From a virus (taxonomy: Duplodnaviria; Heunggongvirae; Uroviricota; Caudoviricetes): a DNA stretch of 16,313 nt. This document shows, piece after piece, positions 1 through 15,804 of this stretch; the first letter of the stretch is position 1, and each line of letters opens with the position of its first letter. The stretch lies in the IMG/VR virus record IMGVR_UViG_2609459861_000002, positions 1 to 16,313 of that record. One strand, written 5' to 3'. A program made the translations under genes and the position numbers. Under the pieces are notes generated by a model. It was not told the origin of the DNA. It worked only from the letters and a program-made list of their open reading frames with translations, and searched no databases.

Positions 1-1254
1 ATGCTGGAACAAATGGGCATTGCCGCGAAGCAAGCCTCGTATAAATTAGCGCAACTCTCCAGCCGCGAAAAAAATCGCGTGCTGGAAAAAATCGCCGATG
101 AACTGGAAGCACAAAGCGAAATCATCCTCAACGCTAACGCCCAGGATGTTGCTGACGCGCGAGCCAATGGCCTTAGCGAAGCGATGCTTGACCGTCTGGC
201 ACTGACGCCCGCACGGCTGAAAGGCATTGCCGACGATGTACGTCAGGTGTGCAACCTCGCCGATCCGGTGGGGCAGGTAATCGATGGCGGCGTACTGGAC
301 AGCGGCCTGCGTCTTGAGCGTCGTCGCGTACCGCTGGGGGTTATTGGCGTGATTTATGAAGCGCGCCCGAACGTGACGGTTGATGTCGCTTCGCTGTGCC
401 TGAAAACCGGTAATGCGGTGATCCTGCGCGGTGGCAAAGAAACGTGTCGCACTAACGCTGCAACGGTGGCGGTGATTCAGGACGCCCTGAAATCCTGCGG
501 CTTACCGGCGGGTGCCGTGCAGGCGATTGATAATCCTGACCGTGCGCTGGTCAGTGAAATGCTGCGTATGGATAAATACATCGACATGCTGATCCCGCGT
601 GGTGGCGCTGGTTTGCATAAACTGTGCCGTGAACAGTCGACAATCCCGGTGATCACAGGTGGTATAGGCGTATGCCATATTTACGTTGATGAAAGTGTAG
701 AGATCGCTGAAGCATTAAAAGTGATCGTCAACGCGAAAACTCAGCGTCCGAGCACATGTAATACGGTTGAAACGTTGCTGGTGAATAAAAACATCGCCGA
801 TAGCTTCCTGCCCGCATTAAGCAAACAAATGGCGGAAAGCGGCGTGACATTACACGCAGATGCAGCTGCACTGGCGCAGTTGCAGGCAGGCCCTGCGAAG
901 GTGGTTGCTGTTAAAGCCGAAGAGTATGACGATGAGTTTCTGTCATTAGATTTGAACGTCAAAATCGTCAGCGATCTTGACGATGCCATCGCCCATATTC
1001 GTGAACACGGCACACAACACTCCGATGCGATCCTGACCCGCGATATGCGCAACGCCCAGCGTTTTGTTAACGAAGTGGATTCGTCCGCTGTTTACGTTAA
1101 CGCCTCTACGCGTTTTACCGACGGCGGCCAGTTTGGTCTGGGTGCGGAAGTGGCGGTAAGCACACAAAAACTCCACGCGCGTGGCCCAATGGGGCTGGAA
1201 GCACTGACCACTTACAAGTGGATCGGCATTGGTGATTACACCATTCGTGCGTAA
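1..1254 (+). CDS. proA: gamma-glutamyl phosphate reductase (glutamate-5-semialdehyde dehydrogenase)
   Basis: Full-length 417-aa ORF; I recognise the translation as enterobacterial ProA. Window begins at its start codon. Confidence 0.97.
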
Positions 1255-1368
1255 ATAAAACCGGGTGATGCAAAAGTAGCCATTTGATTCACAAGGCCAT
1301 TGACGCATCGCCCGGTTAGTTTTAACCTTGCCCACCGTGATTCACGTTCGTGAACATGTCCTTTCAGG

Positions 1369-1444
1369 GCCGATATAGCTCAGTTGGTAGAGCAGCGCAT
1401 TCGTAATGCGAAGGTCGGAGGTTCGACTCCTCTTATCGGCACCA
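1369..1444 (+). tRNA. thrW: tRNA-Thr, anticodon CGU
   Basis: Cloverleaf readable by eye: acceptor GCCGATA/TATCGGC, D-arm GCTC..GAGC, anticodon stem GCGCA/TGCGA with loop TTCGTAA (anticodon CGT), T-arm GGAGG-TTCGACT-CCTCT, 3' CCA encoded. Sits directly after proA as thrW does in E. coli. Confidence 0.93.
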
Positions 1445-1458
1445 TTTAAATCAATAAG

Positions 1459-2622
1459 TTACACATCATTAGTACCTTCCTTATTTTTTGACTGGGACAA
1501 ATTTGGGACCGATGGGTTCAGGATCGAGTCTATTTGCCGTGCGTGTTCGGTAAGGTGATTAGGTGCGAGGTGAGCATATCGACGAACCATTTCGATAGAC
1601 TCCCAGCCTCCCATTTCCTGTAACACTGACAACGGGACACCGGCTTGAACCAGCCAACTTGCCCAGGTGTGTCTCAAGTCATGAAATCTGAAATCATCAA
1701 TACCAGCTCGTCTCAGCGCCGCTTTCCAGGCTGTGTTTGCGTCATACCGCATCTTCCTGACTGTTGGCGCTTTCGTTCCGTCTGGTTTGGTACAGCTTTC
1801 CTTGTACACAAATACCCAACGGTGATGATTCCCGATTTGTTTTTTCAATACGCGACATGCAGTATCATTCAGCGCAACGCCAATTGCGCGGTTTGATTTA
1901 CTCTCTTCCGGGTTTATCCATGCCACCCGGCGCTGCATATCTATTTGTTGCCATTCAAGGTTGATGATGTTCGAGCGTCTTAAGCCTGTTGCCAGTGCAA
2001 ATTCAACAACAGACTTTAATGGCTCCGGACATTCATCAATCAGCCTTTGTGCTTCATGGGGCTCCAGCCAGCGGATCCGTTTATTCTTTGGTTGAGGCAC
2101 TTTAATAATTGGTGCCTTATCCAGCATTTTCCATTCACGCTCTGCGGCTCTTAGTAGGGCCTTTATAAATGAAAGATGCGTAGCCTTCGTTGCAACGGAC
2201 GCTGGTTTTGGCGTGTATTCTGGAACAGGTTTCCCTTTTTTTCTGCATGCTTCTGCCCTGAGTTTCCAGTTTTCCTCATGACGCCGGTTCGTCATTTTCT
2301 GCATTGCTGAATAAATTTTTGATTCAGTGATGTCTCTTAGTTGCATCCCTGCGAAATGTTGAAGCCAGAATCCGATCCGGCTTTTGTCATCGTCCAGTGA
2401 TTTCTTATGTGCTTTCTCTTCGAGCCACCTGACACACGCTTCCTCAAACGTCATATCAGGTATTTCACCAAGTTTGCTGACCCGCCATGCTTCAGCCTTT
2501 AGCTTGTCATGGAGCTCTGTCGCCTGCCTTTTGTCCTTTGTTCCAAGAGACTGTTTAAATCTTTTACCGTTCGGCAATGTGAAACTGGCGTACCATATTT
2601 CACTTCTGCGGAAGAGTGACAT
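1459..2622 (-). CDS. int: phage tyrosine integrase (lambdoid Int family)
   Basis: 387-aa ORF beginning [27 protein letters not shown], which I recognise as the IntD/IntF-type prophage integrase of E. coli; C-terminal HDLRHTWAS (HxxR) and RRYAHL (catalytic Tyr region). Stop codon lies 15 nt from the tRNA CCA end. Confidence 0.93.
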
Positions 2623-2849
2623 TTTCTTTCCTCTGTTATGCCATCACCCGCGCTCACCTTGATAGTATGCAGCGGAGACTGAAGCGCCGCAATGCAGGCT
2701 TGTCGCGTTGTGAGGTAAGGAGATTTTGGTTTAGTGGGGTCTTTGCGTGTTGCCTGTAGGCGGCCTGTTCGTATCCAGTTGGTGGCGGTTGGTCTGGATA
2801 TCTTAAGAAACTGACAGGCCTCATCGAGTGTGAGGCTGTATGATTCCAT
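2499..2849 (-). CDS. xis: excisionase / AlpA-type helix-turn-helix protein
   Basis: HTH-like segment [29 protein letters not shown] at 2849 is preceded by GAGG with 5-nt spacing; the longer track ORF starts at an upstream GTG. Lies immediately upstream of int, and its 3' end overlaps the int 5' end by about 120 nt, so one of the two ends is uncertain. Confidence 0.65.
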
Positions 2850-3099
2850 GGTTACCTCTGCTTTTTGAACGCATGTCACGTAACTTCTTAATGTGTTCTG
2901 CCGTTTCGATCTCTTCTGCTATCCGATCTGCATCAGCTTTATTCACAGGTTCAAAGTCATGATTAAAGCGGAACATGCTGGCGATACATGTTCTGCCTTT
3001 TCGGATGTAGTGAACTTTGTTGTGGGTAGAACGCAGGATTTTGCAGGGAGTGCCGTGGTGGTCGACGTACCAGGTGTTAGGAAAAATGATTCTGAACAT
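2821..3099 (-). CDS. hypothetical phage protein (92 aa)
   Basis: ORF with protein-like composition; ATG at 3099 preceded by GAGGT at 5-nt spacing; overlaps the xis start by 29 nt as in compact phage operons. Family not recognised. Confidence 0.5.
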   Translation of the reverse strand: MFRIIFPNTWYVDHHGTPCKILRSTHNKVHYIRKGRTCIASMFRFNHDFEPVNKADADRIAEEIETAEHIKKLRDMRSKSRGNHGIIQPHTR

Positions 3100-3146
3100 T
3101 TTTACACCTCAGTTGGACGATGTTGAAATTTGCTGCTTTGAGGCCA

Positions 3147-3365
3147 TCACAGTCCCCATTGTTTGTTCTTAAGTTCGATCTCCTCCTGGCAACTTGCACA
3201 AGTCCGACAACCCTGAACAGCCAGGCGTCTTCGCTCATCTATCGGATCGCCACACTCACAACAATGAGTTGCGGATACAGTCTGGTAGTTCAGACGACGC
3301 ATTTTTATTGCTGTATTGCGCTGTAATTCTTCGATTTCTGATGCTGAATCAATGATGTCTGCCAT
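3147..3365 (-). CDS. TraR/DksA-family C4 zinc-finger protein
   Basis: 72-aa ORF with CCECGDPIDERRRLAVQGCRTCASC, i.e. CxxC-(17)-CxxC, at the C-terminus; size and motif spacing match phage and plasmid TraR homologues. Confidence 0.8.
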   Translation of the reverse strand: MADIIDSASEIEELQRNTAIKMRRLNYQTVSATHCCECGDPIDERRRLAVQGCRTCASCQEEIELKNKQWGL

Positions 3366-3418
3366 CTTCCATTAATCCCTGAATTGTTGGTTAATACGCT
3401 TGAGGATGAATGCGAACA

Positions 3419-3443
3419 ATAAAAAAGGAGCCTGTAGCTCCCT
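3419..3443 (-). terminator. candidate intrinsic terminator downstream of the 3464-3679 ORF
   Basis: On the minus-strand RNA: stem GGAGC/GCUCC (extendable by a G-U and an A-U pair), loop UACAG, followed by UUUUUUAUUG. Confidence 0.4.
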
Positions 3444-3463
3444 GATGATTTTGCTTTTCATGT

Positions 3464-3679
3464 TCACCGTTCCTTAAAGACGCCGTTTAACATGCCGATC
3501 GCCAGGCTTAAATGAGTCGGTGTGAATCCCATCAGCGTTACCGTTTCGCGGTGCTTCTTTAGTACGCTACGGCAAATGTCATCGACGTTTTTATCCGGAA
3601 ACTGCTGTCTGGCTTTTTTGATTTCAGAATTAGCCTGACGGGCAATGCTGCGAAGGGCGTTTTCGTGCTGAGGTGTCAT
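3464..3679 (-). CDS. hypothetical phage protein (about 71 aa, start uncertain)
   Basis: C-terminal 71 residues from MTPQHENALRSIARQ are protein-like; the upstream in-frame extension to 3778 is Cys/His-rich and less convincing. No strong SD at any candidate start. Confidence 0.4.
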   Translation of the reverse strand: MTPQHENALRSIARQANSEIKKARQQFPDKNVDDICRSVLKKHRETVTLMGFTPTHLSLAIGMLNGVFKER

Positions 3680-3755
3680 TGAACAAGTCCCATGTCGGCA
3701 AGCATAAGCACACAGAATATGAAGCCCGCTGCCAGAAAAATGCATTCCGTGGTTG

Positions 3756-4133
3756 TCATGCAGCCTCCCGACGGGCAAGAATCCTTGAGCCGAACGCCAT
3801 CAACTCTCCACGATCAACGGTCGTAAAGTGGCAGTGTGTACGGGGGTATGGGTGCCAGATAATGAGCATCGAACCTTTATTATTTCCACTGACGGGTTTC
3901 TCAGTGAGTGGGTTAATAAATGCCAGTCGTCCTGCCGTGATGAATCTGACCTCACTGGCGGTTTGTATCGCTTCATGAAACCATCCGACAGATGTGTCAG
4001 CAGGCAATAACATTACACATCCCACACTACTGAATTTGTTTTCAGTGGCTGCCTTTTTCACAAAAGGGGAAATATTGCTGTATGGTGGATTCAACCAGAC
4101 ATAACCAGAGGCATATCTGGCTGAAAGAGGGGG
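3756..4133 (-). pseudogene. phage N6-adenine DNA methyltransferase (Dam family), 5'-truncated
   Basis: Translation contains the NPPY catalytic motif followed by MLLPADTSVGWFH..EVRFI.GRL.F.NP, as in phage Dam-type methyltransferases. Only 13 codons precede NPPY before an in-frame stop at 4134-4136, and there is no ATG; the track start is a TTG at the NPPY codon. The N-terminal part expected in this family is absent. Confidence 0.6.
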
Positions 4134-4143
4134 TTATTAAGGC

Positions 4144-4506
4144 GTGAATACCTACAGTATCACATTACCCTGGCCTCCGAGCAATAATCGCTATTACCGC
4201 CATAATCGCGGGCGCACGCACGTCAGTGCAGAGGGGCAGGCATACCGCGATAACGTCGCCCGAATCATTAAAAGCGCAATGCTGGATATCGGCCTGGCTA
4301 TGCCTGTGAAAATCCGCATTGAGTGCCACATGCCGGATCGCCGTCGCCGTGACCTGGATAATCTGCAAAAAGCCGCTTTTGACGCACTCACTAAAGCAGG
4401 TTTCTGGCTGGATGATGCTCAGGTCGTTGATTACCGCGTTGTGAAGATGCCTGTTACCAAAGGTGGGAGGCTGGAACTGACCATCACCGAAATTGGGAAT
4501 GAATGA
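4144..4506 (+). CDS. rusA: crossover junction endodeoxyribonuclease RusA (Holliday junction resolvase)
   Basis: 120-aa [27 protein letters not shown]...; I recognise it as nearly identical to E. coli prophage RusA. GTG start with GAGGGGG upstream. Confidence 0.93.
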
Positions 4507-4643
4507 TGTTTGAGTTTTATATGGCAGAACTTCTTCGCCACCGCTGGGGGCATCTGCGCTTATATCGTTTCCCCGGTTCTGTTTTGACCGATTACCGAAT
4601 ACTGAAGAATTACGCCAAAACCCTGACAGGAGCAGGAGTATGA
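4503..4643 (+). CDS. ylcG: YlcG-like small phage protein (46 aa)
   Basis: Hand translation from the ATG overlapping the rusA stop (ATGA) gives [46 protein letters not shown], matching the small gene that follows rusA in DLP12-type prophages. Below the ORF-track size cutoff. Confidence 0.65.
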
Positions 4644-4728: not shown

Positions 4729-5112
4729 ATGCGTGATATTCAGATGGTTCTTGAGCGTTGGGGAGCGTGGGCGGCTAATAATCATGAAGATGTGACCTGG
4801 TCGTCCATTGCCGCCGGTTTTAAGGGATTAATTACTTCAAAAGTAAAATCTCGCCCGCAATGTTGTGACGATGACGCGATGATTATTTGCGGGTGCATGG
4901 CCCGTCTGAAAAAGAACAACAGCGATTTGCACGATTTATTAGTAGATTATTATGTAGTCGGTATGACATTCATGTCACTGGCAGGTAAGCATTGCTGCTC
5001 TGATGGTTATATCGGGAAAAGGTTACAGAAGGCTGAGGGCATAATTGAAGGGATGTTAATGGCATTAGATATCCGGTTAGAGATGGATATCGTTGTTAAT
5101 AACTCTAATTAA
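4729..5112 (+). CDS. late-gene antiterminator Q (Q82/QuuD type)
   Basis: 127 aa from the ATG at 4729 ([22 protein letters not shown]...), with Cys clusters [12 protein letters not shown] and HCC typical of the Q zinc-binding fold; sits between the rusA/ylcG nin remnant and the lysis genes. Confidence 0.85.
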
Positions 5113-5301: not shown

Positions 5302-6399
5302 TTAGAACTGGTAAACCAGACCTACAGCAACGATGTCATCAGTGCTTACACCGAGTGCTTTAGTGAAGTCATTTTTGTCAAGCAGGTTGATTTTGTAATC
5401 AACGAAAGTAGACATATTTTTGTTGAAGTAATAGGTTGCACCTACATCAACATATTTGACTAAGTCCTGATCGCCCCATACTCCAAGATCCTTACCTTTA
5501 GATTGCAGGTAAGCAACGGACGGACGCAGACCGAAATCGAACTGATATTGTGCAACAGCTTCGAAGTTTTGGGCTTTATTAGCAACGAAGTGATCAGCAA
5601 ATACAGTCATATTCTGGGTTTCAGAATAGGTAGTGGCCAGGTAAATGTTGTTAGCGTCATATTTCAGACCTGCGGCCCAAACTTCTGCATTTTTACCGGA
5701 AGCAAATACTTCAGGAAGAACTTTCCCTGCATTAACTTGAGTGTCGGTACGATCAGATTTCGCATAAGTTGCACCGATACCGAATCCTTCGTATTCATAG
5801 GTAGCAGAGAAACCGAAGCCATCACCGTTACCTTCAGTGTAGTTATCGAAATCGCTACGATCGTTTTTGCCTTGGTACTGAGCAGCAAAGTTCAGACCAT
5901 CAACCAGACCAAAGAAGTCGTTGTTACGATAGGTTGCAACACCAGTTGCACGTTGAGTCATGAACACGTCGGTTTGAGTCCAAGTGTCACCACCGAATTC
6001 TGGCAGGACGTCAGTCCACGCACCGATGTCGTATGCTACACCGTAGTTACGGCCGTAATCGATGGAGCCGTAGTCACCGAATTTCAGGCCAGCGAAGGCA
6101 AGACGGGTTTTATCTTTGGAGGAACCTTGAGATTCAGCGCGGTTGCCTTTGAATTCATATTCCCACTGACCGAAACCAGTCAGTTGATCGTTGATTTGGG
6201 TTTCACCTTTGAAGCCAAGACGGGCATAAGTAGTATCACCATCATCTGCATCATTAGAGGAGAAGTAGTGCTTAGCATTAACTTTCCCGTACAGATCCAG
6301 CTTGTTACTGTCTTTATTATAAATTTCAGCTGCCTGAGCAGACATCGCCATCAGTACTGATGCAGCTACAGCAGAAATTGCCACTGTTAATTTTTTCAT
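5302..6399 (-). CDS. nmpC: outer-membrane general porin, prophage-encoded (NmpC/Lc/OmpC family)
   Basis: 365-aa ORF with signal peptide [30 protein letters not shown], porin-like Gly/Tyr/Asp-rich beta-barrel composition and C-terminal YQF. I recognise the N-terminal mature sequence as the NmpC/Lc-type phage porin. Intact, with no IS disruption. Confidence 0.93.
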
Positions 6400-8484: not shown

Positions 8485-9341
8485 CTTATTATCCTGTATT
8501 GTTAAAAACAGCAGAATCCTATGTGACAACAATTAAACGATAGTTAAATGGATTGATGAAAATTAAAACTATATAGGTGTACGGTCAGACTATTGGAGGT
8601 AGTCTGGATTTGAATGTCAGTGTGTTGTCGGCATTATGGCAATGCAATTTGGATAAAGCGGGGATTAAAAAGATAGAGGCGAGCCGGTCAGGTAGAAATG
8701 AATCAGGCTCAAAGTGAAGCGGAAAAGGTCTTTGGCACAAACTGATGCTGCCATAATTACAGCCTGATGACTTGTGGAATGAAACATGTTGAACCTCCTT
8801 AATTGATGTTATTCGAGTGAGGAAGGCATTCTGTCCTCCTATACTGTCCAGTAAATCAAACAGGAAGCTTGTCTCACGTGTGAGACAAGCCTCTCCATTA
8901 GCGAGTTGTATTGATCACAACTCTTCAAAGAATTCATTACTGGGTAGATGAAAATAGTTTCACGATGAATGGAGGAGGCTATGTTGGTGGCTTCTTCATT
9001 GGAGTACATATGCCCCCACGAACCCCAAAAACCTGCCGTGTTCGCGGCTACCGCAATACCACCACAGATCCGTCAGGCTATTGCAAAAGCCACAAAAGCG
9101 AAGGCTGGAAGCAATACAAGCCGGGCCAGTCCTGTCATCAGCGCGGTTATGGTTCGCGGGGTTGTCCCTCATGCTCGCCAGTCCTGTGCGGGGGGGGGAA
9201 GAAACAGGACACTCACACAGATTTTTGTGGGTCGATGCTATTCCTTTCTGGATTATCCCGATGCCATTCATGCAAGGGCTGTATCAGACGTTCGTCATGG
9301 CTGTCAGGCTGACGGGTCCTCCCGGTGGGGGGGCCTGCCAC

Positions 9342-9528
9342 GGGGCGGGAGCGTCGCGGAAAAAGGCTAGTTTTTGCATTTTTATCGGCCACCATCATCT
9401 TTACATCTTATTGATTATTAATGATTATTTGTTTTTTGTATGTCGAATTGCGTGTTTTTTGTTCGACATCGAACGCGTTTTCTTAAAGTTGTTCGCACGA
9501 TGCATGTTTAAAGCTCTCCGGAGGAAAT
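9342..9528. other. candidate cos region (cosN-like core followed by A/T-rich cosB-like segment)
   Basis: CGGGGCGGGAGCGTCGCGG at 9341-9359 matches the lambda cosN core as I remember it (CGGGGCGGCGACCTCGCGG) in both flanks, differing in the central 5 nt; followed by an A/T-rich stretch with repeated TTCGA/TCGAA motifs, directly upstream of the small terminase gene. Confidence 0.4.
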
Positions 9529-10020
9529 ATGGATCATGAGTTGAAAAACCTGGTGCTGAATATTAATCAACTGGCGGCTTTATCTGGTCTGCACCGCCAG
9601 ACTGTCGTGGCAAGACTGAAAAACATTCGTCCCGCTGGTGGACATGACAAACTCAAGCTATACCGGTTGACCGATATTCTGACTGAATTTATGGGGTTAC
9701 CACCGCCGGTTGCTGAGGGCGAAATGGATCCACATGAACGCAAAGCCTGGTATCAGTCTGAACGTGAGCGTCTTAAGTTCGAACAGGAAACGGCACAACT
9801 CATTCCGGCCAGTGATGTCAGACGGGAGTTTGCCATCTGGGCAAAAGCGGTCGTGCAGGTGCTGGAGACATTACCGGATATTCTGGAACGTGACTGCGGC
9901 CTGCAGCCTGCTGCTGTGAGCCGTGTTCAGTCCATTATTGATGATCTGCGCGATCAGATAGCCCTGCGGGTGACCGAAGCAGGTGCGGATGATGAGGAGG
10001 AATTACAGCAGGAGGAGTAA
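9529..10020 (+). CDS. terminase small subunit (Nu1 family)
   Basis: 163-aa ORF with N-terminal HTH-like segment LNINQLAALSGLHRQTVVARLKNI and acidic C-terminus; stop overlaps the start of the large-terminase ORF (TAATG), the standard Nu1-A arrangement. Confidence 0.8.
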   Translation: MDHELKNLVLNINQLAALSGLHRQTVVARLKNIRPAGGHDKLKLYRLTDILTEFMGLPPPVAEGEMDPHERKAWYQSERERLKFEQETAQLIPASDVRREFAIWAKAVVQVLETLPDILERDCGLQPAAVSRVQSIIDDLRDQIALRVTEAGADDEEELQQEE

Positions 10021-11312
10021 TGCTGAATCAGGAAACCGCAAAGGCAGCACGAACCGATTCAGGTTATATCCTTCGCGCACCGAGACGAATGCGGGTTGCT
10101 GATGCCGTTGCTCAGTATATGCGAGTGCCCATGGGGGCCGGGAACTCAGTCCCGTGGGATCCGCTGGTGGCACCGTATGTTCTTGAGCCGATGAACTGCC
10201 TGGCCTCGCGTGAATACGACGCAGTGATATTTGTTGGTCCGGCACGAACCGGCAAGACTATCGGCCTGATTGACGGCTGGGTGATTTACAACGTGATTTG
10301 CGATCCTGCGGATATGCTGATCATTCAGATGACGGAGGAAAAAGCCCGCGAACACTCCAAAAAACGACTTGCCAGAACGTTTCGCGTCAGCCCGGAAGTG
10401 GTCAGTCGCCTGAGTCCGAACAAAAATGACAACAACGTTTATGACAGAACATTCCTTGCTGGCAACTACCTGAAAATCGGCTGGCCGTCAGTCAATATCA
10501 TGTCCTCATCAGATTATAAATGCGTGGCGCTGACGGATTATGACCGTTTTCCGGAAGATATTGATGGCGAGGGGGATGCCTTCTCTCTTGCCTCAAAACG
10601 TACCACCACATTTATGTCCAGTGGTATGACGCTGGTGGAGAGTTCCCCCGGCAGGGATGTGAAGGATGTGAAATGGCGACGGACTTCACCGCATGAGGCT
10701 CCACCAACCACGGGGATACTGTCGCTCTATAACCGTGGCGATCGCCGTCGCTGGTACTGGCCCTGTCCACACTGTGGTGAGTATTTTCAGCCCTGCGGCG
10801 ATGTGGTTGCTGGTTTCCGTGATATTGCCGATCCCGTGCTGGCAAGTGAGGCGGCTTATATTCAGTGTCCTTCCTGTTCAGGACGGATTATGCCTGAACA
10901 AAAACGTGAGCTGAACGGACGTGGGGTCTGGTTGCGGGATGGTGAATCCATCAATGCGGATGGCAGTCGTTATGGTGATCCCCGACGCTCACGTATTGCG
11001 TCATTCTGGATTCCACCCATTATCTTTAACGGAATAGCGTATAGCGATCCGGGAAGTGGTAATAACCCGGGAGGTACAAGATACACGGGTTATGGTTTTG
11101 AAGTTCGCAAAAACGGTGTATTAATCGCATCCAGAGAAACTAAAGGGGCCATTCCCGGTAGCTACAGTGCGGTTATTGATATGCCGAGTGGCAGGGGAAG
11201 CGTCACTCTGGAGTTTAAGGTTTTCCATAAAGGCAATCAGTGGGCAGGTAATATCACCGACTGTACGGTGATTGTGACCAAAAAAGCTGCTTCCGGCATC
11301 AGTATTCGTTGA
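10020..11312 (+). pseudogene. terminase large subunit (gpA family), N-terminal ATPase region only, fused in frame to about 100 unrelated codons
   Basis: Residues 1 to about 330 carry gpA-like landmarks (P-loop VGPARTGKT, CPHCGEYFQ zinc motif, GVWLRDG). Lambda gpA is about 640 aa; here the ORF ends at 430 aa and its last 100 residues do not resemble terminase. A hairpin-plus-T6 terminator and lom follow, which is the position of the J 3' end in lambda. Confidence 0.7.
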
Positions 11313-12045: not shown

Positions 12046-15000
12046 ATGGCAGTAAAGATTTCAGGTGTACTGAAAGACGGCGCAGGTAAACCGGTACAGA
12101 ACTGCACAATCCAGCTGAAAGCAAAACGTAACAGCACCACGGTGGTGGCGAACACGGTGGCCTCAGAAAATCCGGATGAAGCCGGGCGTTACAGCATGGA
12201 CGTTGAGTACGGTCAGTACAGCGTTATTCTGTTGGTGGAAGGCTTCCCGCCATCGCATGCCGGGACCATCACCGTGTATGAAGACTCACAACCGGGTACG
12301 CTGAATGATTTTCTCGGTGCCATGACGGAGGATGATGTCCATCCGGAGGCACTGCGCCGCTTTGAACTGATGGTGGAAGAGGTGGCGCGTAACGCGTCCG
12401 CAGTGGCGCAGAACACAGCAGCCGCGAAGAAGTCAGCCAGCGATGCCGGCACATCAGCCCGTGAGGCGGCAACCCGTGCAACTGATGCTGCAGGCTCAGC
12501 ACGTGCAGCCAGCACGTCAGCCGGACAGGCCGCTTCGTCGGCTCAGTCAGCGTCTTCCAGCGCAGGAACGGCATCAACAAAGGCCACTGAAGCATCAAAA
12601 AGTGCTGCCGCTGCAGAGTCTTCAAAAAGCGCGGCAGCCACCAGTGCCGGTGCAGCGAAAACGTCAGAAACGAATGCCGCAGCATCACAAAAATCTGCGG
12701 CCACTTCTGCATCCACCGCGACCACGAAAGCGTCAGAAGCTGCCACCTCAGCCCGGGATGCGTCGGCTTCAAAAGTGGCGGCAAAATCATCAGAAACGAG
12801 CGCAGCCTCGAGCGCCGGCAGTGCAGCTTCCTCGGCAACGGCGGCAGGAAATTCCGCGAAGGCCGCAAAAACGTCTGAGATGAATGCGGATAACAGCGCA
12901 CAGGCGGCAGCAGACTCACAAACTGCATCGGCAAATTCCGCGACAGCAGCCAAAAAATCAGAAACCAACGCGAAAAATAGTGAGTCAGCAGCAAAGGTCA
13001 GCGAAACCAACGCTAAAGCGTCAGAGAACAAGGCGAAAGAATATCTCGACAAGGTCGGGGGACTCGTCAGCCCGATGACGCAATACGATTGGCCCGTTGT
13101 TACTGGTAATGAGTCTTTTTACATAAAGATCGCGAAACTTTCCGATCCCGGAAGCAACAATTGCCATGTAACGCTAATGGTTACTAACGGCGGTGACTAC
13201 AGCTCCCCTTACGGAAACATTGACTTTATCGAGATCTCGGCGCGCGGTCTGCCTTCTTCGCTTACTGCTGATAATGTATCTCGTTACCTGAGTATACGCC
13301 GTTTAGGGCCAACCGGGCTAATCAATAGCATGCAAATGCGTTACGGCCTGGTTAAAGATGATGGCTTTATTGAGGTTTGGGCCTTCCAGCGTGCATTTAT
13401 CAACGGCGCAAAGGTTGCGGTACTGGCGCAGACGGCACGCACGGAATTATACATTCCAGACGGATTTGTTAAGCAAACCGCCGCGCCTTCTGGATATGTT
13501 GAAAGCCCCGTTGTAAGGATTTACGACCAGTTAAACAAGCCGACTAAAGCAGATTTGGGCCTTTCTAATGCTATGCTTACAGGCGCTTTTGGTCTTGGCG
13601 GTAGCGGTCTTGTTTTGGATGGTAAAATGACCGATAAGGAACTACTACAAGAGCTAAGGGCGAAAGGTGGGTGTTTCTGGAGGTCAGGAAAACCAACAGG
13701 TAGCGAATCAACAATTTTCAGCCACGGTTCTGGTATATTCTCGCGGTGCGGCGATACGTGGTCAGCTATTAATATCGATTACGAAAGCGGTAGAGTAAAG
13801 ATTTACTCTAGTAACGATAATAGACTCAACAATGGTACTTTTAACATAAATGAGCTATACGGAACCAAATACAAGCCGTCGAAATCGGATGTTGGACTTG
13901 GTAACGTAACTAACGATGCGCAGGTGAAAAAATCCGGCGACATTATGTCAGGTGATCTGTCGATCACTAAAGCAACACCTTCACTATACCTGCGTTCAAA
14001 AAGTGGAACCGCCCATGTATGGTTCCAAAATGAGGATCAGTCGGAACGCGGCGTTATTTTTGCGCCTACAAATACTGATACGCTTGGCGAAGTTCACATC
14101 AGGGCTAAAAACGCAAAAGGTCAATCAAGTGGTGATTTTATTGTTCGTCACGACGGGATGGTTGAAGCCCGTGATCTCACATTAGCGGGTAAAACTAAAG
14201 GCGCAAAAGCAGAATTTGCAAACACAAGCACTAGCTCCGATGATACTACGGTAAGCATAAAAGGATCTCAGCATACTCCTCTGGTTTTAACGCGCAACAA
14301 CACAATTAAAAATTTATCCATTGGGTTTAAGGTTGATGACGTTGACCAAAAATATCTCGGCATATACGGTGACGGTGATTTGTATTTTGGTGGTTATTCT
14401 GACCACACAAAAAACAGCAAAGTAATTACACAAGCAATACTCGATAGCGGGGTAACGGTAGGCGGCAAAACAACATTTTCTGACCTTGCCACATTTAACG
14501 CAGGTATGTCTGGGCCTATCGAGCCGGAAGCCATTGAAGGCATGACTATCGATCTTAATGACCTTATCATTAAGTTCACGGATAAAGGTTCAGTTAAATA
14601 CTATCACTGCAAAACTGCCGGAGGCGGTTCGAATATTACCAATAAGCCTGACGGCGTAGGCGGCAACTTTTTGCTTCGTGTAGAGTCAATTCGTAAGGTT
14701 AGTGATTCAGATTATATAAACATGCAAACGCTGATTAGCGGCGACAAAGGACGCGTGCATGTTCGTTTTGTTACTAATGGTAATTGGACAGCATGGAGCG
14801 AGCATGTTGTTTCAGGATGGAATCAGGATGTGACCGTCAGGTCGTTAACCTCGACGACTCCATCAAAATTAGGCGGCGGGCGTGTTGATGTGCTGGGGAG
14901 TACGTCAGATTACAGTAGTATGAATTGTGCTGTGCGCGGTGTTGATAGCACTGGAACCAATTCGGCGTGGTCAGTAGGTACATCGAAAAACACGGGAAAA

Positions 15001-15804
15001 ATGTTGTGCCTTAAAAACCACAGAAGCAGCGCTCAAGTGCTGTTAAATGGCGATGATGGCGCGGTGCAACTACTAAGCGGTACTGTCAACGGTGCTACAG
15101 CACAGGCGCTAACCATCAACAAAGATGAGGTTAACTCAACTGCTGATTTAGTAATTAGAAAACAGTCAGGGACTGGCAATCGTTTTGTTTTAAAGAACGC
15201 AGGTAATGCAGAACTACCGTTTAACATCAGTGTATGGGGTTCAAGTGATCGACAAAACGTTTTTGAGGTTGGAACGTCTGCTGCGTATCTGTTTTATGCG
15301 CAAAGAACGCCAGCAGGCCAGTTGTTTGATGTAAATGGCGCTATTAATTGCACAACGCTGAATCAGTCATCAGACCGCGACCTTAAAGACGATATTCTCG
15401 TTATCAGCGACGCGACGAAAGCAATCCGCAAAATGAACGGGTACACCTACACGCTCAAGGAAAACGGCCTTCCTTATGCTGGCGTTATTGCACAGGAAGT
15501 AATGGAGGCGCTACCGGAAGCCGTAGGATCGTTTACTCGTTACGGTGAAGAATTGCAGGGTCCGACCATTGATGGCAACGAGCTACGCGAAGAAACGCGT
15601 TACCTCAATGTTGATTATGCGGCGGTGACTGGTTTACTTGTCCAGGTCGCCCGTGAAACAGATGATCGCGTTACCGCGCTGGAAGAGGAAAACACAACGC
15701 TACGTCAAAATCTGGCAACAGCAGACACCCGGATCAGCACTCTGGAAAATCAGGTAAGCGAACTGGTTGCACTTGTCCGGCAGTTAACAGGAAGCGAACA
15801 TTGA
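12046..15804 (+). CDS. stf: mosaic side tail fibre: lambda Stf-like N-terminus, divergent central domain, C-terminal intramolecular chaperone (peptidase S74-like) domain
   Basis: 1252-aa ORF. N-terminus MAVKISGVLKDGAGKPVQNCTIQLKA... is near-identical to lambda Stf as I recall it, followed by an Ala/Ser/Thr/Lys-rich repetitive shaft. Central region, from about residue 337, is unrelated. C-terminal 143 aa begin SS/DRDLK (Ser and Lys at i+5) and end in a heptad-like coiled coil, as in self-cleaving chaperone domains of endosialidase and T5 pb1-type fibres. Confidence 0.9.
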   Translation: MAVKISGVLKDGAGKPVQNCTIQLKAKRNSTTVVANTVASENPDEAGRYSMDVEYGQYSVILLVEGFPPSHAGTITVYEDSQPGTLNDFLGAMTEDDVHPEALRRFELMVEEVARNASAVAQNTAAAKKSASDAGTSAREAATRATDAAGSARAASTSAGQAASSAQSASSSAGTASTKATEASKSAAAAESSKSAAATSAGAAKTSETNAAASQKSAATSASTATTKASEAATSARDASASKVAAKSSETSAASSAGSAASSATAAGNSAKAAKTSEMNADNSAQAAADSQTASANSATAAKKSETNAKNSESAAKVSETNAKASENKAKEYLDKVGGLVSPMTQYDWPVVTGNESFYIKIAKLSDPGSNNCHVTLMVTNGGDYSSPYGNIDFIEISARGLPSSLTADNVSRYLSIRRLGPTGLINSMQMRYGLVKDDGFIEVWAFQRAFINGAKVAVLAQTARTELYIPDGFVKQTAAPSGYVESPVVRIYDQLNKPTKADLGLSNAMLTGAFGLGGSGLVLDGKMTDKELLQELRAKGGCFWRSGKPTGSESTIFSHGSGIFSRCGDTWSAINIDYESGRVKIYSSNDNRLNNGTFNINELYGTKYKPSKSDVGLGNVTNDAQVKKSGDIMSGDLSITKATPSLYLRSKSGTAHVWFQNEDQSERGVIFAPTNTDTLGEVHIRAKNAKGQSSGDFIVRHDGMVEARDLTLAGKTKGAKAEFANTSTSSDDTTVSIKGSQHTPLVLTRNNTIKNLSIGFKVDDVDQKYLGIYGDGDLYFGGYSDHTKNSKVITQAILDSGVTVGGKTTFSDLATFNAGMSGPIEPEAIEGMTIDLNDLIIKFTDKGSVKYYHCKTAGGGSNITNKPDGVGGNFLLRVESIRKVSDSDYINMQTLISGDKGRVHVRFVTNGNWTAWSEHVVSGWNQDVTVRSLTSTTPSKLGGGRVDVLGSTSDYSSMNCAVRGVDSTGTNSAWSVGTSKNTGKMLCLKNHRSSAQVLLNGDDGAVQLLSGTVNGATAQALTINKDEVNSTADLVIRKQSGTGNRFVLKNAGNAELPFNISVWGSSDRQNVFEVGTSAAYLFYAQRTPAGQLFDVNGAINCTTLNQSSDRDLKDDILVISDATKAIRKMNGYTYTLKENGLPYAGVIAQEVMEALPEAVGSFTRYGEELQGPTIDGNELREETRYLNVDYAAVTGLLVQVARETDDRVTALEEENTTLRQNLATADTRISTLENQVSELVALVRQLTGSEH
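12400..13050 (+). repeat. degenerate tandem coding repeats (Ala/Ser/Thr/Lys-rich shaft of the tail fibre)
   Basis: Recurring motifs KTSETNA, KSSETSA, KTSEMNA, KKSETNA, KVSETNA in the translation; GC-rich, and it generates long spurious ORFs in other frames and on the opposite strand. Confidence 0.6.

Follow-up and report, generated by a model that had tools for sequence, protein, structure and literature searches.

A microhomology-joined deletion in a DLP12-like cryptic prophage at thrW, with a right end that recurs in related prophages

The DNA analysed here, a stretch of 16,313 nt referred to as the window, has proA at its left end and next to it the tRNA gene thrW, the attachment site of a lambdoid prophage (Table 1). 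From proA through thrW into the integrase gene the sequence is 100% identical to several Escherichia coli chromosomes. The integrase differs from the intD of DLP12, and homology to the DLP12-like prophages of the argU site is found only from about position 2600. Here, immediately behind the integrase module, there is a mosaic joint, beyond which the window is 97–99% identical to the early-left genes of argU DLP12-like prophages (comparison with loci L001 and L003). The early-left part also holds an HTH/xis-like gene.

The early-left genes, all on the minus strand, end in the remnant of a Dam-type methyltransferase gene, which meets the 3' end of ybcO and an intact rusA on the opposite strand. 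To the right of rusA the order is ylcG, quuD, a porin gene, a lysis cassette, bor, a DUF1441 small-terminase-like gene, a terminase fragment, lom and a tail fibre gene. The porin gene (5302–6399, 365 aa) is of the nmpC/ompD type and is intact (Pfam Porin_1). Between bor and the DUF1441 gene, at about 8550–9530, there are only overlapping ORFs, and the homology to the closest same-site relative, in E. coli SCU-118, ends at 9155. The tail fibre (12046–15804, 1252 aa) is composed of a prophage tail-fibre N-terminal domain, long Ala/Ser-rich repeats and a C-terminal S74 intramolecular chaperone peptidase.

The right arm carries a second deletion scar, a single ORF of 430 aa in which a GpA_ATPase match (residues 41–304) stands in frame with an Ig_GpJ_C match (residues 350–429). 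The latter is the C-terminal receptor-binding domain of the tail-tip protein J. Head and tail genes are missing from the prophage.

Table 1. Positions of features in the 16,313-nt window
Feature	Position	Strand	Basis
proA	1–1254		left end of the window, next to thrW
tRNA-Thr (thrW), prophage attachment site	1369–1444	+	ARAGORN; Rfam tRNA
Tyrosine integrase of the thrW-site prophage	1459–2622	-	Pfam Phage_integrase, 163 bits
Retained early-left genes (block)	2821–3679	-	Pfam; collinear with QEC11-421, S10 and PhiR30_1
DUF4222	2821–3099	-	
TraR/DksA zinc finger	3147–3365	-	
orf61	3464–3679	-	
Dam-type N6-adenine methyltransferase, 3' remnant (codons 67–185 and stop)	3756–4117	-	Pfam PF05869; protein alignment
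Deletion junction, 4-bp microhomology TATC in both parental sequences	4114–4117		base-by-base comparison with E. coli S10
ybcO, 3' remnant (last 10 codons and stop)	4114–4147	+	100% identity to many E. coli ybcO-rusA sequences
rusA, Holliday junction resolvase, intact, GTG start, 120 aa	4144–4506	+	Pfam RusA PF05866, 81.5 bits
ylcG	4503–4643	+	annotation of homologous loci
quuD, Q-type antiterminator	4729–5112	+	Pfam Phage_antitermQ; annotation of homologous loci
Second deletion scar, terminase gpA-J fusion ORF	10020–11312	+	Pfam; one 430-aa ORF

The joint and the lost block

In E. coli S10 the sequences that flank the joint of the window are present at 99.8–100% identity and lie 11,731 bp apart, so the joint is not a chance pattern. 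On comparison with S10 on both sides, homology to the methyltransferase gene extends through 4117 and homology to ybcO-rusA begins at 4114. The joint is therefore the TATC at 4114–4117, with no added bases. Codon 67 of the methyltransferase gene has been joined to codon 87 of ybcO, the gene of a His-Me finger nuclease (full-length ybcO matches Pfam PF07102). A microhomology deletion is recognised by flanks that keep the order of an intact relative, by a few bases common to both partners where they meet, and by the lack of any insertion; the window shows all three. A preliminary description of this DNA had already recognised a head-to-head deletion junction here, and the intact relatives, which carry a block of genes between the two points, bear this out. 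It had placed the breakpoint at 4134–4143; the actual joint is 17–29 nt further to the left, and what was taken for a bare 10-nt spacer before rusA belongs to the last 34 nt of ybcO.

Could an insertion sequence have made the joint? An IS or transposon end at the junction was rejected, because the right flank does not recur in inverted form in the window and the search for inverted repeats gave nothing meaningful. An adjacent deletion mediated by an IS was likewise rejected, as the native partner sequences meet directly and no terminal inverted repeat is present. One relative bearing IS1 is known, and its joint differs from that of the window.

The junction also creates a chimeric ORF of 21 codons (ATG at 4082 to TGA at 4147; its 21 residues are not shown). 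Its stop overlaps the GTG of rusA, mimicking the native translational coupling of ybcO and rusA, and its ATG sits within the putative -10 hexamer of a promoter-like site at 4057–4086.

Compared with the near-identical prophages of E. coli S10 and QEC11-421 and with phage PhiR30_1, the window lacks 10.2–11.7 kb, a size that depends on the comparator, the exact ancestor not being among them. The missing genes are DUF1317, exo, bet, gam, kil, N, cI, cro, cII, O, P, ren and the nin genes. In S10 the interval of 11,731 bp runs from the methyltransferase 5' end through DUF1317, exo, bet, gam, kil, a cI-type repressor gene, cro, a gene in the cII position, O, P, ren, emrE, ylcJ, ybcK, ybcL, ybcM, ylcH, ybcN and ninE to most of ybcO. 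The prophage of QEC11-421, which occupies the same thrW site and differs at 14 positions over window 1–4117, has an interval of about 10.2 kb, in which cIII, N, ninB, a second Dam gene, ninE and ninX are found in addition. PhiR30_1 (PV340558.1), a viable phage with 99.2% identity to window 2600–4117, has the same gene order and core genes, and there the two points are about 10.5 kb apart. Alignment to these intact relatives thus agrees with the earlier proposal that recombination genes, N, repressor and cro, and replication genes lie between the two points and are absent here.

What the deletion took out comprises the N-terminal part of the methyltransferase, the Red genes and kil, the immunity region together with pL and pR, the origin and the replication genes, and everything from the nin genes to ybcO; rusA, ylcG and quuD were left intact. 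Judged from its gene content, the prophage would be unable to repress, replicate, be induced or antiterminate.

A right end shared with other deletions

To the nucleotide, the right end of the deletion recurs in at least six further types of junction, each with its own left partner. It lies at window position 4114 (26146 in the S10 locus, L003; GGT/TATCTGG), within the last part of ybcO and 30 nt before rusA, and the candidate break-site sequence there is ACACAGGTTATCTGGCTG. The first shared case was E. coli 14EC033, in which orf61 is joined to the same right-hand nucleotide as in the window. A search for any base other than the native T before TATCTGGCTGAAAGAGGGGGTTATTAAGGCGTGAA matched three metagenome contigs and five viral contigs. 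The left partners are an ea8.5-like gene next to xis (L132), orf61 (L006, L136 and 14EC033), the Dam methyltransferase gene of the window, DUF1382 (L008 and E. coli A10, L142), gam (L009, L133), a cro-like gene (L010, L135) and codon 20 of a lambda-type O gene (L134).

What do these left partners have in common? The native left sequences that follow the break in the seven types are TATC, TAC, TATG, TAAT, TATA, TAAC and TAAT, with TA in 7/7. The microhomologies are 4, 2, 3, 2, 3, 2 and 2 bases long, and beyond the TA they extend at about the rate expected by chance. Equivalent control patterns placed at offsets -14, -7 and +6 returned no junctions, and at offset -1 only single-base variants of the native sequence, from the same collection that gave four types at the TA; the comparison is between a pattern aimed at this site and four nearby offsets in one collection. 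A mirror pattern search for deletions with the left end fixed found none. A search for the G allele (TATGTGG) gave no matches, but this allele accounts for only about 12% of the sample, a share too small for the negative to be informative.

The TA was also considered as a natural mosaic joint, and this was rejected: none of 120 viral contigs with a rusA start changes there, and most keep their ybcO homology through it. Another common boundary, about 90 nt upstream of rusA, is where 26 of the 120 change. A second sharp boundary, about 90–110 nt upstream of rusA at TAAAGGGCATGCCAAGCAAGTCGATGC, is seen in L001, L002, L014, L045, L089, L139 and L143, with at least four different sequences to its left. 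The form with a 90-nt ybcO remnant is present in about 530 complete E. coli genomes, where PGAP annotates it as a partial DUF1364 gene.

Other right ends exist among the relatives. In E. coli FG92-1, exo is joined upstream of a 90-nt ybcO block; in E. coli SCU-118, DUF1317 is joined to ninB; and in E. coli 99-3165, DUF4222 is joined 25 nt to the left of the joint in the window. The TA site is thus preferred and not obligatory. In each of the seven types the left end falls on the left side of the replication origin, in keeping with selection for deletions that take out O, P and the origin. From the sequences compared, the shared right end points to a deletion hotspot, of which we found no description in the literature.

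Our main reading, to which we give a probability of roughly 0.9, is that a DLP12-like prophage at thrW lost a single block of about 10–12 kb by illegitimate recombination between two copies of TATC, one inside the early-left Dam-type methyltransferase gene and the other in the ybcO 3' end 30 nt before rusA, and that the right end is a recurrent hotspot. In the order of events that we favour, a nick, a break or the arrest of a 3' end would leave a defined DNA end at T4114, whose terminal TA would then serve to join it to DNA further upstream. Survivors would be enriched because the origin and the O and P genes had been lost.

What could define such an end? The combination of an invariant terminal TA and a changing partner resembles the joining of a defined end by its last two bases, and could just as well reflect a recombinase crossover at TA. 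It is possible, though on balance we doubt it, that an enzyme breaks the DNA, or makes a crossover, at the TA 30 nt before rusA and so repeatedly sets off leftward deletions that 'ground' DLP12-like prophages. On this tentative reading the prophages would lose their origin and replication genes and, in most cases, the immunity region too, and YbcO or a TA-specific recombinase might be involved. A site-specific enzyme would make the fixed right end, and the deletions would be its off-target products. The candidates are a serine-type or TA-specific recombinase or transposase, whose crossovers at TA would link pseudo-sites to its own site in the 3' end of ybcO, or nicking by YbcO, a protein of solved structure (3G27). 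That seven junction types share one end to the nucleotide, with exactly TA common to all and longer matches at about the chance rate, speaks for an enzyme of this kind. Int-promoted deletions of lambda likewise have one fixed end, at att. A serine recombinase gene, ybcK, lies within the deleted block of some relatives, and the site itself encodes YbcO, a predicted His-Me finger nuclease of unknown role (PMC5714182). To name YbcO as the origin of the fixed end is speculation.

Against an enzyme stand several observations. No dyad symmetry was seen around the site on inspection, and as single-stranded DNA it folds into a hairpin no better than shuffled sequences (z = 0.97). The left partners share only the TA, the loose TGGC present in 3/7 being a post hoc observation, and products of the mirror-image kind are missing from the search described above. 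The ybcK gene is absent from both PhiR30_1 and QEC11-421. We know of no enzyme with such a specificity for TA.

Other causes were sought at the site itself. It has no inverted repeat or transposon end, and a comparison by eye with familiar motifs (Chi, the gyrase consensus, the DnaA box, the primase CTG, Vsr/Dcm, Type IIS and rolling-circle nick motifs) gave nothing convincing. Ten nucleotides, CTGAAAGAGG at window 4121–4130, recur at 19509–19518 of the S10 locus as the centre of one origin iteron (TTTACCTGAAAGAGGTAAA). A pseudo-iteron for the O protein was rejected: the ten bases agree with this iteron, which is of the S10/PhiR30_1 type, but there is no match in its arms. Chromosomal replication forks presumably cross the locus from left to right, as on the K-12 map, and with forks in this direction the fixed end would be the opposite one if simple fork collapse were the cause.

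Or is the shared right end a coincidence shaped by selection, with random microhomology deletions surviving only where all of ybcO is lost and the ribosome-binding site of rusA is kept? The position of all left ends on one side of the origin fits selection for replication loss, and right ends elsewhere do occur in relatives. However, selection cannot pick a single phosphodiester bond, and the offsets -14, -7, -1 and +6 yielded no junctions against four types at the TA. Relatives that keep 55–170 nt of ybcO upstream of rusA also persist. We regard this explanation as very improbable.

If the hotspot is real, the domestication of E. coli prophages would be driven in part by a specific DNA event and not by random decay alone, and a deletion route that strips replication and immunity would be open to experiment. 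The conserved and uncharacterised ybcO-rusA module would also gain a candidate role. Should the TA site prove to be enzymatic as well, lambdoid prophages would have a specific way, possibly involving YbcO or a TA-specific recombinase, of becoming 'grounded' cryptic elements.

The genes on either side of the joint

RusA is identical at 118/120 residues to the crystallised K-12 protein (PDB 1Q8R, residues 1–120) and keeps D70, D72 and D91. The ybcO stop overlaps the rusA start (GTGA), and rusA retains its native 30 nt upstream, including the ribosome-binding site GAGGGGG (4127–4133). The foreign DNA that had been supposed to lie immediately upstream of rusA is therefore not there.

In K-12, rusA is quiescent and has been switched on by upstream insertions of IS2 (rus-1) or IS10 (rus-2) (PMC1636454). 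Does the junction activate rusA through a foreign promoter, as these insertions do? The gene is intact with its ribosome-binding site, and on its strand a consensus scan found a promoter-like site, TTCACA-18-TATGGT at 4057–4086, with 9/12 matches and the only one nearby that faces rusA. However, the scan returned 3 promoter-like sites against 1.9 ± 1.3 expected by chance, the site lies within the methyltransferase antisense strand and was not made by the junction, the natural promoter pR has been deleted, and no IS element, with or without an outward promoter, is present upstream of rusA or at the junction. Since there is neither an IS nor a promoter above chance level upstream, activation of rusA by the junction is unsupported by the sequence, and so is the altered expression that had been suggested for it; we think it unlikely. 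The deletion has cut off ylcG and quuD from pR as well. Because their promoter is gone, rusA, ylcG and quuD are probably silent.

On the other side of the joint, the open minus-strand frame at 3756–4133 reads ...YASGYVWLNPPYSNISPF...REAA*. The methyltransferase remnant is identical in 119/119 residues to residues 67–185 of WP_000129285.1 (185 aa), and it matches PF05869 with 121 bits against a cutoff of 28.1 (E = 5e-35). It covers positions 60–168 of the 169 in this profile, whereas the full-length homologue covers 1–168. The catalytic motif IV, (N/D)PPY, is kept as NPPY, residues 75–78 of the full-length protein. The 5' 196 nt have been lost, and with them the start codon and residues 1–66, the N-terminal third that forms the AdoMet-binding part; the deleted residues include WRTPPEIF and FQLDAAAS in the region before motif IV. 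No solved structure matching the methyltransferase was found by sequence.

Alignment to full-length methyltransferases, which are 185 aa long with NPPY at 75–78, identifies the short form as a truncation. The preliminary description was right on this, and also on the retention of NPPY and the lack of an ATG: there is no ATG upstream of NPPY in the frame of the remnant, where the sole mechanical start is a TTG at 4094. It was wrong in counting 13 codons upstream of NPPY. Fourteen are open, of which eight belong to the methyltransferase (YASGYVWL) and the outer six are the antisense of the ybcO 3' end. Among the homologues and relatives compared there is no native short start, and no relative has the methyltransferase natively abutting rusA.

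A native short isoform with a non-ATG start, divergent from rusA, would accord with the open frame and its TTG (3756–4094), but it can be set aside with near certainty, given that the Pfam profile is covered only from position 60, that identical full-length 185-aa proteins are encoded at the same locus in other strains, that the outer six codons are ybcO antisense, and that the junction occurs in 0/5,426 complete E. coli genomes and its exact 26-mer is absent from species-representative genomes and JGI metagenomes.

The full-length gene of WP_000129285.1 lies in the thrW prophage of QEC11-421 at identical coordinates (3756–4313), and the remnant differs from it by one nucleotide and no amino acid. 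The truncation is evolutionarily recent, because the remnant has undergone no amino-acid change. The absence of the exact junction elsewhere, together with the undecayed remnant, points to the deletion being a recent and lineage-specific event. We infer that the remnant is a dead pseudogene and not a functional member of PF05869, and the ORF should be annotated as a pseudogene.

Comparison with known systems

Taken alone, the junction represents routine prophage decay and explains why the element is defective. The intact prophages at thrW (QEC11-421) and argU (S10) and phage PhiR30_1 resemble the window closely, with left arms 99.2–99.8% and right arms 97–100% identical and the same sequence as their 185-aa methyltransferase over the retained part. 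They differ from it in keeping the 10.2–11.7 kb block of recombination, immunity, replication and nin genes.

With their constant end the hotspot deletions resemble the Int-promoted deletions of lambda, deletions adjacent to an IS (e.g. the IS2 'crypticogen' of lambda) and deletions from rolling-circle nicks. In all of these one end is constant to the nucleotide, the other is variable, and every deletion extends to the same side. Unlike these systems, the hotspot has no att site, IS element or known nick-site motif at the fixed end. The likeness to these classical deletions is a lead and not a test.

The rus-1 (IS2) and rus-2 (IS10) alleles of K-12 are like the window in that the DNA upstream of rusA has been altered (PMC1636454). 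They are IS insertions that supply transcription, whereas the deletion in the window removes the natural promoter and brings in no recognisable new one.

The element in the window is a DLP12-like cryptic lambdoid prophage at thrW, a relative of DLP12 and not DLP12 itself. It has the lambdoid order rusA-ylcG-quuD-porin-lysis of the DLP12 type together with the loss of immunity and replication genes, but it lies at thrW next to proA with another integrase and not at argU with intD. The order ybcO-rusA-ylcG-quuD-porin-essD-rrrD-rzpD-bor-nohD on the right is shared with the DLP12 of K-12, and the early-left genes are common to the DLP12-like prophages of other strains. In each of them an internal deletion has brought the early-left arm up against the early-right arm and left the prophage defective. 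In the K-12 element the joint is, we take it, that of an exoD remnant next to a P remnant. The deletion in the window exceeds that of K-12 in size and ends elsewhere, at methyltransferase codon 67 and ybcO codon 87, and the window also lacks emrE, ybcK, ybcL, ybcM, ybcN and ninE. The porin gene is intact in the window, in contrast to that of the K-12 element, which is presumably interrupted by IS5, and the second deletion, between terminase and J, sets the two further apart. In K-12 DLP12, rusA is quiescent (PMC1636454); in the window it is probably silent. The deletion described here is a further variant of the internal deletions known from cryptic lambdoid prophages, at another attachment site.
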